Of a stretch of DNA of 64,000 nt, positions 25,798-53,777 are shown one piece after another (the stretch's first letter is position 1; each line of letters begins with the position of its first letter). The position numbers and the translations under genes are program-made. Below the pieces are notes generated by a model, which had not been told where the DNA came from, ran no database searches, and saw only the letters and a program-made list of their open reading frames with translations. The stretch is from the IMG/VR virus record IMGVR_UViG_3300020182_002648, positions 32,001 to 96,000 of that record; one strand, 5' to 3'. This DNA comes from a virus.

Positions 25798-28290
25798 ATG
25801 AGTATGAAGGACTTACCTGATTTAACAGTTGCCGGTCGCCGCGCAATGATGACAGCAAAGAAAATTGCAGTAGATTATAAGCATGATTTCATTACAACCG
25901 AACATGTGTTACTAGCTATATTAGACTGTGATAAGATAACGCCTGGATTAAAAGCCATTTCTAAGCAGTATGTCCAGATAGACGACTTTAAATCCTTTGT
26001 TATAACCAATTTACAAAAATACACTGGCCCGGAGAACATTGATATAGGCCTGGTCGAACCATCACCACGTACATTACAGATGCTAGCATTCGCTAGTGGA
26101 ATCGCCGGTGAGATGGGATCATCTCTTATTGATGTGGATCACATGTTACTAAGTATACTAGTAAGCGATTCAGGTAGTGGTAACAATTTATTCAGACTCA
26201 AAAATATAAATGTTGATGACCTTTACGAGATCATATATGAAGCTATCACTCCACGAGGAGTGAGGAAGAAACAAGACCAAAAACAAAAATCCGGTATTGG
26301 TGGCAGTCATACTAACACGGACACTGATGAGATCTATGAAGAGAGTATCATCGATAAATACGCAGCAAATTTAACTCAATTAGCGTTTAATGGTGAGATT
26401 GACCCTGTGATAGGTCGTGATGACGAAGTGCAAGATGCAATTCAGATACTATCTAGACGTACTAAGAATAACCCTGTGCTAGTAGGGGAGCCCGGTGTTG
26501 GTAAGACAGCTGTAATAGAACTACTAGCTCACAGAATAGTCAATGGAGACGTACCGCAAAACTTGAGAGGTAAACAGATATACACATTAGATTTAGCCGC
26601 TCTGGTAGCTGGTACTATCTACAGAGGTCAATTTGAGGAGAGGTTGAAGGAAGTTATATCATACGTCACACAACGAGAGGATCTAATTATATTTATTGAT
26701 GAGTTACACATGCTTGTTGGAGCTGGTGCAAGTACTGGTAGTATGGATGCTAGTAACATATTGAAGCCAGCGTTAGCAAGAGGCAAGTTGTCATGTATAG
26801 GAGCCACTACCACTAGTGAATATAAGGAGTTTATAGAAGGTGACGGAGCATTAGAGAGACGATTTCAATCAATACATGTAGGAGAACCTGGGACAGAAGA
26901 TTGTATTGCAATACTTCGTGGTATCAAAGAGAAATACGAAGACTATCACAATGTAAAATATAACAAATCCGTGATAAAAGAGATTGTAACATTGTGTGAA
27001 CGTTATATTGTCGATAAAAACTTTCCTGACAAAGCGATTGACATACTAGATGAATCTGGAGCAGTAGCAAAAGTGTCTAGATATCATGGTAATACGGAGG
27101 TACAGGCTCTTATAGATGATTTGTTACATGTTAGCAGAAGCAAGGAAAAGGCTGTAGAGACAGGTGAATATGATTTAGGCTTAGGATACAGAGAAACAGA
27201 GGAACAATTGGCTGTTAAGTTAGAAGAATGTATCGAGGAGAGAGAAGCTGGTGAACTATCTAGAAACATAAAGCCTTCCAGGATATCAATTGAAGATATC
27301 AGAGAGTTGATATCTAATAAATGTGGTGTTCCTGTTAGTAGCATGGAGGCTGATGAGCTGAAAGTGCTGTCAAATCTTGCTATCAGTATGAAGAACAAGG
27401 TGATCGGACAAGAAGATGGTATAGACAAGATATGTAATGCTATCAAAAGGTCTAGAGCTGGTGTGAGCAACCCTGATAAACCTATATGTTCGTTATTATT
27501 TTTAGGACCAACAGGCGTAGGCAAGACCTATCTTGCACATCAACTAGGAAAAGCTATGTTTCATGACGGTAATTTCAAACAATACGACATGTCTGAGTTC
27601 AGCGAGAAGCATGCCACTAGTAAATTGATTGGATCTCCTCCCGGCTACGTCGGATATGGTGAGGGAGGGAGCCTAACGGAGTATGTTAGACACAACCCGT
27701 ACTGTGTACTACTGTTCGATGAGATCGAAAAAGCTCATCCTGAGGTGCTACAACTGTTTCTCCAAGTGTTTGAGTACGGTTGCTTGACTGATAGTGAAGG
27801 ATTAGAGGTAAATTTTAAAAATACTATAATAGTACTGACAAGTAACATAGGTGCTCACAAGTTTGAGAAGCGACCTAATGTAGGATTTGGTACAGGAGAG
27901 ACATTAGAAGAAGGAGTAGTGGCGGAACTCAAGAAGATGTATGCTCCAGAATTTATAAATCGCCTTGATGAGGTGGTTATATTCAACAAATTGACAGACA
28001 AAGACATCACATCTATTTGTACCGGGCTGTTAAAGGGTGTGAAACGTACTCTCAAGAATAACAATGGCAAGATAATTAACTTTTCTAAGGATATCGCTGA
28101 TCATATTCTATCTAAATCAAGAGACGCAGCATATGGTGCTCGTCCTTTGAAGAGAATCATCACAGAATTTATAGAGACACCACTAGCTGAGTTCATTATA
28201 TCTAACGATTCATCCATCCGCAAGATAAATGCTGAGGTTGTTGATGAAGATATACAGTTTACTGCTGCTTCTGTTGTTCAGCGTACTTGA
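25798..28290 (+). CDS. clpC: ClpC-like AAA+ unfoldase
   Basis: Clp-N repeats (TEHVLL, DHMLL), two Walker A (GEPGVGKT, GPTGVGKT), UVR-like middle domain, VGF ClpP-docking loop, GARPL; TATAAATA at 25791. Confidence 0.9.
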   Translation: MSMKDLPDLTVAGRRAMMTAKKIAVDYKHDFITTEHVLLAILDCDKITPGLKAISKQYVQIDDFKSFVITNLQKYTGPENIDIGLVEPSPRTLQMLAFASGIAGEMGSSLIDVDHMLLSILVSDSGSGNNLFRLKNINVDDLYEIIYEAITPRGVRKKQDQKQKSGIGGSHTNTDTDEIYEESIIDKYAANLTQLAFNGEIDPVIGRDDEVQDAIQILSRRTKNNPVLVGEPGVGKTAVIELLAHRIVNGDVPQNLRGKQIYTLDLAALVAGTIYRGQFEERLKEVISYVTQREDLIIFIDELHMLVGAGASTGSMDASNILKPALARGKLSCIGATTTSEYKEFIEGDGALERRFQSIHVGEPGTEDCIAILRGIKEKYEDYHNVKYNKSVIKEIVTLCERYIVDKNFPDKAIDILDESGAVAKVSRYHGNTEVQALIDDLLHVSRSKEKAVETGEYDLGLGYRETEEQLAVKLEECIEEREAGELSRNIKPSRISIEDIRELISNKCGVPVSSMEADELKVLSNLAISMKNKVIGQEDGIDKICNAIKRSRAGVSNPDKPICSLLFLGPTGVGKTYLAHQLGKAMFHDGNFKQYDMSEFSEKHATSKLIGSPPGYVGYGEGGSLTEYVRHNPYCVLLFDEIEKAHPEVLQLFLQVFEYGCLTDSEGLEVNFKNTIIVLTSNIGAHKFEKRPNVGFGTGETLEEGVVAELKKMYAPEFINRLDEVVIFNKLTDKDITSICTGLLKGVKRTLKNNNGKIINFSKDIADHILSKSRDAAYGARPLKRIITEFIETPLAEFIISNDSSIRKINAEVVDEDIQFTAASVVQRT

Positions 28291-49792: not shown

Positions 49793-50211
49793 ATGATTAT
49801 TTATCCTCGCGGATGATCTTTTGCTTGTACTTTGTAATAAGCGCACTCAAACAATTGATAGCTAATTGTGTGTTTTTCTCTCTGAGATGTTCAACTGGAT
49901 ATGCTTCCTCTAGCTCCATTATTTTCTCAGACAATATGATGATCTTGGCTAGCATTATGTCGTTATGTTGTGCTACCTCATCATCCATACAATTATTTAT
50001 TGTATCATAACTTGATATATCTCAAAGTGGTACGGTTCATGGCTAACGCTTTATTCAATGTATGTGCTTCATGCTCTGATAACATCATGATCGGTGACCT
50101 GTACAGTTTATTCGCTGGTTTGCTCCAATCGATCTGCATGTATTTATTGAGAGTTGTATTGTATACTTCTTGCATGATATAATTATAGTATACACCCGCT
50201 CGGATGTCCAC

Positions 50212-50786
50212 AAAAAAACATCAGTTGATGTGTAACACGACGTGGATATAATTAGTAATTGGGTCCCGCGGGTTGTGACATACAACTGATGTTTTTAAGG
50301 TGAGGGGGCGCCCGCTACGCAGTTACCACCCTATAAAATGGTTGGGGAGAGGCTACTCTTCAGCCTTCTCTCAACACGTCTCTAGTTACCGCCAGAATGT
50401 CTCTGCAACTTGATGGCCGATTAAGCCGCTCGCAATCACTTGATCGTTGAGCCTCTACTACAGAGATCTTGTTCGCACTACGCTCCTAGATTCGTTGTTA
50501 TGCGACTAAGGAAGGCCTTGAATTTTACTTCTCACCTCCAGGAGACATACCTATAGTTTAAGTATAGGGGTTGGCAGACGTGTACCACATGGCGAGTTGT
50601 TAGCTCGATAGACTTTCCTTGGTCTAGCCTCAATCACTTGATCGTTGACCCCTTGCCGCAGCAAGGACATGTGTGCCAGTGTCGCTAAGGTAGCGACTTC
50701 TACTGGCGTCCCACCATGACGACCGTCGAAGTCATGGTATTAAAATTTAAATGTAAAAGAACGATTTGCCGACTCATCGGCGGTAT
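50212..50786 (-). ncRNA. Large highly structured non-coding RNA (unassigned class)
   Basis: No credible ORF; GC-enriched; more than 10 helices; own promoter, boxB/boxA-like leader and terminal hairpin with U-tract. Confidence 0.8.
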
Positions 50787-50792
50787 ATTTAT

Positions 50793-50823
50793 ATTATAGT
50801 GACTATCGCCACTGTAGGCAACT
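50793..50823 (-). promoter_or_regulatory. Early promoter of the ncRNA
   Basis: AG-TTGCCT-17bp-TATAAT. Confidence 0.85.
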
Positions 50824-50985
50824 ATTGTTTTTCTTTCTCTTCTTCTGGTACAATGTAGCTAGCGATTGTGGTTAACACATCCTCCAACTTGAGGACAGAG
50901 TCAGCTAGACTGTTGATTGTGTCTTCTAAGATCTGCACTCTACTCTCAAGTTCGATGATTTTACTGCTAGTTGGATCGTGACTCA

Positions 50986-51763
50986 TTATCGTGACCTGGT
51001 GCGTGAGTGATAATTACGATTGTGATTATGAACGCGACGACGATTCCGGTTTTTGTAATGATGCTCAATCAATAGAGACACTTCATCACGATGCATGTTA
51101 CGCTTGGTGATAATCTTAGGCGTCTCAGCATTTCTACCTGACGTGTCTGTGATCTCAATCAAGAAGTTCTCAACACCATCAGCTTGTTGTCCGGTGTTAC
51201 CACCAGTCACTGTGATGTTGTAGCCTGAACTCAATGTACCTTGAGCAATACATCCTGTGTTGGGTACCACCATTGGGTGAAATACGAGATTAGCGAAAGA
51301 GGCGATTTGATCCTGATTTTTGTTCATAGTGTGTTTGTTAGGTGTCTAGTTATTAATGCTAAGTCTTCAATCTCTTTATTGAATCTTGTTAAATTGTGTG
51401 TTGTTGCGTAGAAGATGGCTGACTTGAATCGTAACAACACGTCGTTCATCAACTCATCGCTAGGTTTGTCATCATTCTTCACAGCGTCATCGCAAATGGC
51501 ATCCCATAGATCACCAGCGAAGAAATCAGTTACATCTGTCCAGTTTTGGTCGTCTTCATTCATGTGTTGTGTTATTTAGCGATTACTACGAAGGCGTCTA
51601 AGACGAACTCTAAGATGGCCCACCCGATAAACATGCAAAGCCCGCCGACTGCCATAACTCTGGCTTGAGCTGGGAAGAGAAAAAACCCTCCGATTAACAT
51701 GCAGCTCGCGATGAATATCGCTAAGACTACACCCATTGATCCTATTTCTATTTCTGGTGGCAT
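50986..51763 (-). CDS. Three hypothetical genes (50986-51327, 51324-51563, 51572-51763 two-TM)
   Basis: ORF track; leader before 51763. Confidence 0.6.
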
Positions 51764-51825
51764 AATATGTAATTATTTAATGTTATTGTCGTTGTTAAAA
51801 TTTAATTATAATCTATTCTAGCTGA

Positions 51826-52779
51826 TCAGGCAACTAATAGATGTTCAACCGCTACTCGTTTGGCTCGAGCCTGCATGCCTGATCCTAGATTGCTGATAAA
51901 CTTACGGGCAGACGGGTTCTTGCTACTCTTGGCATGGTGATCAAGATACTCTGTGACTGCATTCATCATGTCATAGCGTGTCTTCCCTTCATTTCCCATA
52001 CCCTCTTTGAAGAGATGAATAAGATCATCCACTCGATTGTTCATCATGGTCTTGCTTCTGTCTGATTTCAATTTAGCAGCCTTCTTGACAGTCTCTTTGT
52101 CTCGGAAATCATTGAAGAAGTTCTGAGCGAATGATTTAGCCTGTCCTTCGCTCATGTTCACCTTGTACAATTTACTTGCGATATGTTGAAACTCTTTGAT
52201 CTGTCCTACACTCCTGCTGAACGCATCACGAGCCTGAGTCAAGTTGTCCTCCCATGTGGTTGAATGTCTCACACCGAATCCTCTGTCCTTGCTAGCAGCA
52301 GACAATGAGGCCATCATGTTGTTACAGATGATTCTGTTGTTGTATGACAGGAATGAGTTGCGTCTCATACCATCATGATACACTATCATGACCACTCGTT
52401 GCTCAAATTTATCATCCTTGTTGTTCGCAGCCTTAAAGTTCTCTGGAAGTTTAGCACTCACCCAACAGGTCTTTCCGTGATTAACAATTCCGGCGGATTC
52501 ATAAACCGCCCCGGCGTCTTTGACTGTCTCATCAAATGGCGCGAACATGTCTTCATTGTCAACGATGTTGTAACGATCACTACATGTACCTAACACGAAA
52601 TGATTGTCCTCACGACGCAACAGATACTTACCAGACACTTCATCACCTTCAGGTGTGTGCATTGGTACTTTCTCCATTTTGAAGTTGAGTTGGCTCCTCT
52701 CAAGGACGTTACTAAAGTCGATTTCACCGGTCAAGTCTGTGCCGGTTTTCTTATCTAAGCTGGTTAATTGACTGATCAT
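51826..52779 (-). CDS. DUF932 family protein
   Basis: YESAG....GK..W, HDG, RIICNN, VRH, NAVTEY.DH motifs. Confidence 0.8.
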   Translation of the reverse strand: MISQLTSLDKKTGTDLTGEIDFSNVLERSQLNFKMEKVPMHTPEGDEVSGKYLLRREDNHFVLGTCSDRYNIVDNEDMFAPFDETVKDAGAVYESAGIVNHGKTCWVSAKLPENFKAANNKDDKFEQRVVMIVYHDGMRRNSFLSYNNRIICNNMMASLSAASKDRGFGVRHSTTWEDNLTQARDAFSRSVGQIKEFQHIASKLYKVNMSEGQAKSFAQNFFNDFRDKETVKKAAKLKSDRSKTMMNNRVDDLIHLFKEGMGNEGKTRYDMMNAVTEYLDHHAKSSKNPSARKFISNLGSGMQARAKRVAVEHLLVA

Positions 52780-53048
52780 ATTTATATTATAATGTATATT
52801 GTATTGATGGGCAACTATTACATGCCCCATTCGTTAGTTACTTTAAGTTCGAACTTGGTCATCACCACATCATCTGACACTCGATCAGTGTGAGAGCAAG
52901 TGTATCCCCATGGTTCCAATCGTGTCAACATATATGAAAGGTATCTTTCTCTATGTTTGACTAGATATGAGTACTCTTTCTCGATTATAACCTCCATCAG
53001 ACTGATGCTAAATTCTTCTAATATCGACCTGACCGGCTTCCGTACCAT

Positions 53049-53777
53049 TTAGTCAACAGTTGCTTCAGCGAAAGCTTCTGCTTGAGTCTTTACCAAGATT
53101 GTCTCATAATGCGATATCATGTGTTCTAAAGCATCCTCCACAAACTCACGTTGACTCATGGAGCTAGCCTCCACTACATTTTTCAATCGCTCCTTGAAGG
53201 AACTGTTGACTATCAACGAGAAGTAACGATCATGTGTCTTCTTGACGTTTTTTCTTCTCAAGCCATTGAACAAAGACTCATCTGCATCTACTTTCTTGAT
53301 AGCTTCAATTGCTGGTTGGTCAAGTTTAGTGTGTGACCATCCTCGAGTACCGGACCGCTCAACAGTCAATCCGAATCGCTCGGCAGCTGTCTTGAACTTC
53401 TTATTATGGTACTGACCTCCACTGCAATCACTCACCTTCTCCACACATGCGTTCCACAGATGAGCCATCTCATGTAACAATGTTTCTAACAAGCATGAGG
53501 CACCTCTAGAGAGATATTCAGCACTCAAATTGATCTCAGGAACACTGTCACCTACTAAGTTGTCTTTCCAGAAACCATTTCCAAACCACCCGTAGGCATT
53601 GCGACGACCACTCTCTTGAATGGTTATGACTACATTGGGTAGTTTGTTCTCTGCGAACGTCGCGTTAAAAATGTCAAATGCACGATACAGCTCAGAATAC
53701 AATTGCTGGCTTCGTGATGCGGGACTAGAGACATACCTTCCGGTTTTTTGATCTCTATATTTGGTTTTCTGTTTCAT
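53049..53777 (-). CDS. SprT-like zinc metalloprotease with C-terminal RHH-like region
   Basis: TLLHEMAH (HExxH), YHNKKFK. Confidence 0.8.
   Translation of the reverse strand: MKQKTKYRDQKTGRYVSSPASRSQQLYSELYRAFDIFNATFAENKLPNVVITIQESGRRNAYGWFGNGFWKDNLVGDSVPEINLSAEYLSRGASCLLETLLHEMAHLWNACVEKVSDCSGGQYHNKKFKTAAERFGLTVERSGTRGWSHTKLDQPAIEAIKKVDADESLFNGLRRKNVKKTHDRYFSLIVNSSFKERLKNVVEASSMSQREFVEDALEHMISHYETILVKTQAEAFAEATVD

Follow-up and report, generated by a model that had tools for sequence, protein, structure and literature searches.

Genomic setting of the locus

The window considered throughout is a stretch of 64 kb that corresponds to bases 32001-96000 of a 146.8 kb IMG/VR virus record, estimated to be 65% complete. 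The major head protein of this phage belongs to the T4 gp23 family (phrog_138, E 1e-88), and by this protein cyanomyophages are its nearest cultured relatives, with an identity of only ~34%. To judge from two related contigs (222 and 229 kb), genomes of the phage lineage measure ~220 kb. ARAGORN found no tRNA and no tmRNA gene in the 64-kb window. A Lon-like ATP-dependent protease of 830 aa is encoded at 25798-28290 on the plus strand (phrog_4871, E 9e-232).

The region of interest, 50212-50786 on the minus strand, lies downstream of a conserved string of genes for a SprT-like protein, a DUF932 protein and several small proteins. Its features are collected in Table 1.

Table 1 Features of the RNA gene and its surroundings, in window coordinates.
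Feature	Position	Strand	Remarks
Conserved gene string upstream of the RNA	50822-53777	-	SprT-like (242 aa), DUF932 (334 aa), small ORFs
Small ORFs in this string (63, 79, 113 and 54 aa)		-	Without known family
Sigma-70-type promoter, TTGCCT-17-TATAAT	50793..50821	-	Consensus scan; A-rich stretch precedes
5' hairpin GCCGA-UGAG-UCGGC	50768..50781	-	Helix 1; 2/5 pairs compensatory; present in 32/36
boxA-like element GUUCUUUUACA	50752..50762	-	Predicted single-stranded in consensus fold
Hairpin ACCAUGAC...GUCAUGGU, invariant apical CGACGG	50714..50739	-	Helix 2; both-side changes in 8/9 pairs
Folded core (RNA positions 75-443), closed by GGG/CCC	50344..50712	-	Helices 3-22
Core part: 5' hairpin arm GCCAGU.../...ACUGGC			
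Core part: multi-way junction closed by CACAUG/CAUGUG			
Core part: second large domain closed by ACACGUCU/AGACGUGU, GCCA/UGGC, AUGUCUC/GAGACAU			
Twin hairpin copy 1, UCAACGAUCAAGUGAUUG	50631..50648	-	First junction domain; exact repeat; helix 8 kept, with A-U to G-C changes
Twin hairpin copy 2, identical 18 nt	50433..50450	-	Second domain; helices 18 and 19; AAGU loop invariant in 36/36
Optional 3' hairpin GGGUGG-UAACUGCGUAGCGGG-CGCCCC	50305..50331	-	Helix 23; 3/4 pairs covary; variable linker next
Long terminal hairpin and U tract	50212..50291	-	Intrinsic-terminator-like 3' end; outer stem covaries, interior sequence-conserved
Promoter-like site TGGACA-17-TATAAT	50182..50210	-	11/12 matches; serves the next gene, outside the RNA

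Within 50212-50786 the longest open reading frames measure 33-39 aa. The sense frame of 39 aa is interrupted by a stop after 16 codons in most homologues. An antisense frame of 47-94 aa occurs in some homologues and is missing from the window and its closest relatives; with 30 of 77 columns variable at each codon position, it displays no codon-position bias. Judged from the aligned homologues, the region holds no conserved ORF and is non-coding. The G+C content of windows within the element is 0.46-0.52, compared with about 0.36-0.43 in the flanks.

The promoter ends 7 nt ahead of the proposed RNA start. In 28 relatives its -35 (GTTGAC, GTTGCC or GTTGCA) and -10 (TATAAT) boxes persist around a 17-nt spacer of variable sequence, and the A-rich stretch ahead of the -35 box is conserved as well. 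Since this promoter is of the sigma-70 type and conserved, the RNA is most likely transcribed by the host polymerase, probably as an early transcript. The opposite end displays the features of an intrinsic terminator, a hairpin (50219-50291) followed by seven U (50212-50218). All 11 pairs of the outer stem (helix 24) covary and helix 25 is nearly invariant; the stem exceeds the length handled by a simple terminator scan.

Overall, the comparison of homologues confirmed 50212-50786 on the minus strand as a real gene for a predicted folded non-coding RNA of ~570 nt. The transcript, its ends and its strand are as yet without experiment. An earlier note, written from this DNA alone, had proposed such an RNA with its own promoter and terminator, and the proposal is borne out by covariation among homologues, by the conserved promoter and hairpin and by contigs from RNA libraries.

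Distribution and conservation among phages

Marine and estuarine metagenomes yielded 38 distinct full-length homologues and ~28 partial ones. Most share one genomic position, downstream of a particular small phage gene that encodes a 113-aa protein. This protein falls into 43 metagenome clusters of 56-100% identity, and contigs from these clusters carry the SprT-like and DUF932 genes, three to four small genes and then a gene-free gap; with nhmmer the RNA was detected in that gap on every contig fetched. A further 52 loci, without exception marine or estuarine, came from a metagenome scan with an invariant 25-mer. So far, as judged from sequence matches, the RNA family has been found in a single lineage only, uncultured T4-like phages of marine and estuarine waters whose genomes measure ~220 kb.

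The 113-aa protein was considered as a partner of the RNA. It has no Pfam or PHROG family and no Atlas hit, and its AlphaFold model (pLDDT 74), a four-strand sheet with a long Arg-rich C-terminal helix, gave no significant PDB match. Without a family or an informative fold it offers no clue, and the candidate was dropped.

Gene content varies among relatives both between the 113-aa gene and the RNA and beyond the RNA, while the RNA itself stays constant. Its conserved block (RNA positions 1-455) shows 82-94% identity over the full length, compared with 66-82% in flanking genes that are only partly alignable. A core more conserved than its flanking genes indicates purifying selection at the nucleotide level. 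The constant upstream synteny says little on function because all homologues belong to one phage lineage. Many contigs end inside the RNA, at various positions (L004, L006, L010-L013, L015-L017, L019, L023, L027 and L029). These breaks probably arise because the RNA, far more conserved than its flanks, is common to co-occurring strains, so that assembly graphs branch there.

No homologue was detected outside this lineage. Blastn of the region against 50,697 cultured-phage records returned no match. In IMG/VR the 18-nt repeat of the twin hairpins gave no hits and the DUF932 neighbour no relatives, while a 384-aa neighbour led to one distant locus (L003), from which the RNA is absent. An exact-pattern scan with TAGTGCGAACAAGATCTC recovered one relative of 222 kb (L030); a match of a second pattern, GAGAGAAGGCTGAAGAGTA, in L083 lies within an ORF and was discarded as chance. 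Searched with exact words only, 185,579 prokaryote genomes yielded no cellular or prophage copy. There the first pattern had no hits, and the six hits of the second fall in unrelated MAGs in which nhmmer found no RNA, a number close to the chance expectation for a 19-mer.

A conserved fold supported by covariation

To describe the fold we used an alignment of 36 sequences below 97.5% identity (mean 84%, range 70-97%). RNAalifold predicts 140 pairs in 25 helices, and 98.5% of the pair cells hold standard pairs. Compensatory double changes occur in 51 of the 140 pairs, compared with 30.6 +/- 2.2 in shuffled alignments; none of 500 column shuffles reached 51, and sliding the 3' partners by 1-3 columns lowered the number of such pairs to 7-17. 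The covariation score follows the same pattern, with 0.242 for the alignment, 0.096 in shuffles and at most 0.057 after sliding. We regard covariation as the decisive test of the RNA, so far as a comparison of sequences can supply one. The stability of the single-sequence fold is weak evidence alone (z = -3.8, with -3.7 for the opposite strand). Seven G-U pairs are invariant; read from the other strand, or in a DNA cruciform, each would become an A-C mismatch. Together with the promoter and the terminator, they identify the minus strand as the RNA strand.

The core is held together by covarying long-range ties between positions 75-77 and 441-443 (GGG/CCC), 114-119 and 196-201, 204-211 and 405-412, and 239-245 and 384-390, and each of the long-range helices 3, 6, 9 and 12 contains compensatory changes. 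One pair of the ACACGUCU/AGACGUGU helix is C-G in 20 sequences and U-A in 15, and two pairs of AUGUCUC/GAGACAU switch in 14 sequences. Two further hairpins of the first junction are clear by eye, one alternating between AGAC/GUCU and GCUG/CAGC, the other between CGAG/CUCG and AUGGAU/AUCCAU; alifold missed them because of alignment gaps. No pseudoknot is backed by solid covariation: a stricter search for stacked runs that might represent pseudoknots or tertiary pairs yielded nothing convincing, merely runs of four pairs of which one covaries, and an all-against-all column scan for extra pairs was swamped by phylogenetic correlation.

Invariant throughout are other helices and also long single-stranded runs, with CAAGGCCUUCCUU, GUCGCAUAACAA, UAGUGCGAACAAGAUCU, AUCAAGUUGCAGA and UGUUGAGAGAAGGCUGAAGAGUA as examples from among the two. 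In an alignment of this kind, such invariant helices and strands point to putative sequence-specific contacts.

The sequence features named in the earlier note are all present where it had placed them. The helices it listed (ACCAUGAC/GUCAUGGU, GCCAGU/ACUGGC, GUCGC/GCGAC, CACAUG/CAUGUG, CCUUGC-UGCG-GCAAGG, CACGUCU/AGACGUG, AUGUCUC/GAGACAU and CCUAUA/UAUAGG) are kept in the 36 sequences, most of them with compensatory changes. Its description of the unpaired segments as A-rich also holds, as 37% of unpaired positions are A. The 18-nt repeat that it reported is exact and occurs only within the RNA region. Partly from this repeat the note had derived a two-module design, which we can retain only in part: identical hairpins do sit in two multi-helix domains, but the two have not changed jointly in evolution. 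In four relatives (L005, L007, L043 and L062) copy 1 has become GGUC..GACU and in five others its loop reads UAGU or GAGU, in each case without a matching change in copy 2, while in L024 only copy 2 has changed. The twin hairpins therefore do not co-vary with each other.

Traces in RNA libraries

The RNA stretch was found in 20 runs from 14 studies. Thirteen RNA-labelled runs hold 36-54% of its sampled words; the contigs of one RNA-labelled run total only 1.8 Mb. RNA-library contigs from four studies span 50341-50729 with identities of 95-99% or better. Logan contigs reveal neither the ends, the strand nor the level of a transcript, and DNA may contaminate RNA libraries. This cover is thus supportive of expression but is not proof of it. 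Cover of the flanking genes is low or nil in the four RNA runs. These runs were picked for holding the RNA, and contig depth cannot rank genes, so we did not use the low flank cover as evidence of differential expression.

A boxA-like leader and neighbouring tRNA genes

Near its 5' end the RNA carries an element that the earlier note had not recognized. The sequence GTTCTTTNACA (in RNA, GUUCUUUNACA) shows no variation across the 36 aligned homologues, nor across the 52 sequences that include the 5' end. It sits ~25-35 nt from the predicted start, unpaired and 5 nt behind a covarying hairpin that takes the position of boxB and is found in 32 of the 36 sequences. The boxA consensus of Gammaproteobacteria is GYUCUUUAANA (in DNA, GYTCTTTAANA) (PMC5725501). 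Twelve of the 36 sequences match it exactly; the rest, the window included, differ only at position 8, which is A, C or U across the family. The exact string GTTCTTTNACA occurs once in the 64-kb window and nowhere else in the non-coding DNA of the 147-kb record. A second match to the consensus in that record (GYTCTTTAACA) is located inside a 935-aa ORF and was rejected as chance. UAACAA, the 3' half of boxA, recurs in one hairpin loop (CUAACAACU) and in the invariant GUCGCAUAACAA (window 50492-50607 and 50752-50762).

In rrn operons the promoter is closely followed by boxB, boxA and boxC in that order, of which boxA is both needed for recruitment of the factors and sufficient for it (PMC10250234). 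The arrangement in the phage resembles that of rrn and lambda nut leaders: a promoter, a hairpin and a single-stranded GUUCUUUNACA, then a long structured untranslated RNA and sometimes tRNAs. It differs from them in that no boxC and no leader-trailer helix was identified and in that position 8 of the phage box is not conserved. By analogy we infer that host RNA polymerase and Nus factors may make this RNA much as they make rRNA, protected from Rho. There are no Nus-binding data and the host is unknown.

At 9 of 41 evaluable loci a tRNA gene follows on the same strand within 900 nt downstream of the RNA. In five of these loci (L020:4326-4399, L022:4260-4333, L042, L045 and L076) a gene for tRNA-Trp or tRNA-Met starts only 5-17 nt behind the terminal hairpin. 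Such a distance leaves no room for a promoter, and co-transcription is the simplest reading. In other relatives a tRNA-Asp gene lies 167-681 nt beyond the RNA.

A modular 3' part

Beyond position 455 the relatives diverge and the 3' region is modular. Most carry a GGYGG-UAACUGCGUAGCGGG-CGCY hairpin, which is missing or replaced in L014, L018, L028, L057, L058 and L067. Other relatives have modules of 60-260 nt inserted right behind it. One of these, a hairpin insert of 60 nt, is present in 8 of the 36 aligned sequences. Carriers (L005:2819-2884, L020, L046, L053-L055 and L062) hold it between the P20 and terminal hairpins; it is closed by GAGRUYAA.../...UURAYCUC, has the conserved interior CUAAUCUNUAACGAGAAGGGAAUCAUYGUUUAACUGCC and is without an Rfam match.

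A larger non-coding module of ~250 nt is recognizable by the landmarks UUAACCCUCUUCGUCCUGAUCC and CGAGCGACACAUGCGGG (L024:4243-5100, L025:2363-2700 and L008:5095-5415). It is fused between the core and a single terminal hairpin in L008, L009 and L057. In L024 and L025 it follows the terminal hairpin and ends with its own second copy of that hairpin, which makes it a second RNA unit of the island. Neither the L025 copy nor the whole loci L008, L024 and L057 gave an Rfam match for this module.

The motif CCACGTCGWGTTMC of the terminal-hairpin interior occurs once in the phage record and once or twice in relatives, always in the RNA island. The near-invariance of the interior, beside a freely covarying outer stem, suggests that it may have a role beyond termination, for example as a 3'-end stability or recognition element. 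In L018 (1343-1449) the interior is inverted relative to L014 (5010-5089) while the outer stem is the same and the RNA regions are 95% identical. The opposite orientation is either genuine, through inversion between the two arms of the inverted repeat, or an artefact of assembly or amplification.

Comparison with known RNA families

At gathering scores, Rfam 15 gave no hit in the 64-kb window and only tRNAs in 14 related loci. The models of ROOL (RF03087) and GOLLD (RF01998) did not match positions 50000-51000 at E<=10 or four divergent homologues at E<=5. A permissive cmscan with 4227 families produced only two hits, both on the opposite strand (E 0.45 and 3.5), which we attribute to chance. 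As neither gathering nor permissive thresholds nor divergent homologues gave a match, the RNA belongs to none of the Rfam families. It is therefore not ROOL, GOLLD, OLE, HEARO, raiA, RNase P, an intron, 6S or another Rfam family, in line with the earlier note, which could not assign it to a known class. A published catalogue of ~10,000 viral structured-RNA candidates with a mean length of 67 nt mentions no such RNA, its supplementary alignments excluded (PMC10690425).

The note had also been reminded of ROOL and GOLLD, and the phage setting and the tRNA neighbours do recall these two RNAs. ROOL is ~0.6 kb long, rich in helices, borne by phages and prophages, often found near tRNA genes, abundant, and has a poorly conserved linker; GOLLD is a large ornate phage RNA often beside tRNAs, sometimes with tRNAs in its linker, and some members are marine (10.1101/2024.12.08.627333). 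The phage RNA shares with ROOL a length of ~0.6 kb, many helices, tRNA neighbours and a variable linker, but its helix layout differs and the model does not match. ROOL has been reported from bacterial prophages and phages, whereas the RNA described here comes from marine T4-like phages. Its setting is nevertheless of the ROOL type, in a T4-like phage with a tRNA near the RNA in the 9 of 41 relatives, although not in the window. GOLLD exceeds 800 nt and has a conserved 3' and a variable 5' domain; here the RNA is ~570 nt, its 5' part of ~455 nt is conserved and its 3' part varies. According to recent cryo-EM work, both ROOL and GOLLD reportedly form RNA-only cages whose function is still open. 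Overall, the RNA is a new family within a known kind, the large ornate phage RNAs.

Discussion

The best explanation of the data as a whole is a free-standing gene for a large structured RNA that begins with a hairpin-boxA antitermination leader and acts in trans as a scaffold or decoy. We hold this to be probable, with considerable room for error. The proposed course of events would begin at the leader, where the hairpin and boxA would recruit host NusB and NusE (S10) and their partners as in rRNA operons; the binding itself is part of the inference. The Nus-modified polymerase would then be able to complete the long untranslated RNA with no termination by Rho. Where a relative has a tRNA gene 5-17 nt past the hairpin, the transcript would extend into this tRNA, and the locus would behave as a small stable-RNA operon of the rrn type. 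The later steps are more weakly supported. The mature RNA might serve in trans as an abundant scaffold or decoy, and its twin hairpins and invariant single strands might bind a protein or RNA partner, either as two copies or as a dimer. By functional class it could, on weak grounds, be placed with the ornate phage RNAs linked to tRNA islands, ROOL and GOLLD, while being a member of neither family. The function itself has not been identified; a trans-acting scaffold of the ROOL/GOLLD type is our favoured guess, for which no partner has been shown.

The main rival is an RNA that, without protein, builds a dimer, ring, cage or similar homo-oligomer in the manner of ROOL, GOLLD and OLE, with the invariant loops and strands as contacts between chains. 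ROOL and GOLLD self-assemble from RNA alone, and the size, the ornate fold, the phage location, the tRNAs and the variable linker before the 3' end all parallel them (10.1101/2024.12.08.627333). Several helices (13, 15, 21 and 22) and loops are invariant while others covary freely, as sequence-specific tertiary or quaternary contacts would produce. Three copies of the palindrome CUAG, of which one lies in a 10-nt loop, likewise never change. We still regard this rival as unlikely. No loop-loop or intermolecular pairing is backed by covariation, the search for stacked runs having given nothing convincing, and the RNA shares no homology with ROOL or GOLLD. Another palindrome, GAUC, which the earlier note had proposed as a means of multimerisation, is buried in a covarying intramolecular stem and cannot be counted in its favour. 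Apart from this point, and from the qualification of the two modules, the earlier reading was supported overall; the boxA-like leader and the modular 3' part had escaped it.

A new large ribozyme, for instance one with the adjoining tRNAs or small RNAs as processing substrates, or one that excises itself from the island transcript, would account for the very conserved core, the invariant nucleotides in junctions and single strands and the size, which is that of large ribozymes, and it would sit in an island of stable RNAs that need processing. There are, however, no Rfam matches to RNase P, group I or II introns or the small self-cleaving families, no flanking exons and no conserved candidate cleavage site, and we consider a ribozyme quite improbable. 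The same-strand genes downstream and the terminator-like hairpin at the end could instead mark a cis-acting leader, a riboswitch or attenuator controlling these genes. Yet what lies downstream varies between small ORFs, tRNAs, the RNA module and a 692-aa gene while the RNA is constant, the next gene in the window has a strong promoter-like site of its own, and ~570 nt is far above the size of known leaders, all of which leaves very little to recommend this option. Hardly any more credence can be given to a chain of independent small RNAs or an element acting at the DNA level, such as an origin or recombination site. Modules do come and go at the 3' end (the P20 hairpin, the 60-nt hairpin insert and the ~250-nt RNA module), and one contig carries an inverted terminal-hairpin interior (L018 compared with L014), but covarying long-range helices tie positions 75-443 into one fold, and the seven invariant G-U pairs would not survive as pairs on the other strand or in a cruciform. 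Returning to the free-standing RNA gene, its proposed antitermination leader may also be combined with a different fate of the product. The RNA would then represent a third, unrelated class of protein-free phage RNA, either a homo-oligomer like ROOL and GOLLD or a new ribozyme serving the stable-RNA island, with a boxA leader of the rrn type; we raise this only as an outside and rather doubtful possibility.

Large, intricately folded RNAs are rare in bacteria and phages, and new classes have each opened new biology. The family described here is a well-defined case, with a compact core, dozens of covarying pairs, many natural variants and a presence in seawater RNA libraries, and its sequence can be taken directly into in vitro folding, mass photometry and cryo-EM. 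The published survey of boxA elements explicitly excluded non-coding RNAs (PMC5725501). The boxA-like leader provides a testable link between the production of a phage non-coding RNA and the Nus/Rho machinery of the host; if true, a phage would here for the first time be seen to borrow the rrn antitermination of its host for a structured RNA that is not ribosomal. Finally, the family marks a stable-RNA island, composed of a large RNA, a second smaller module and tRNAs, in abundant uncultured marine T4-like phages.
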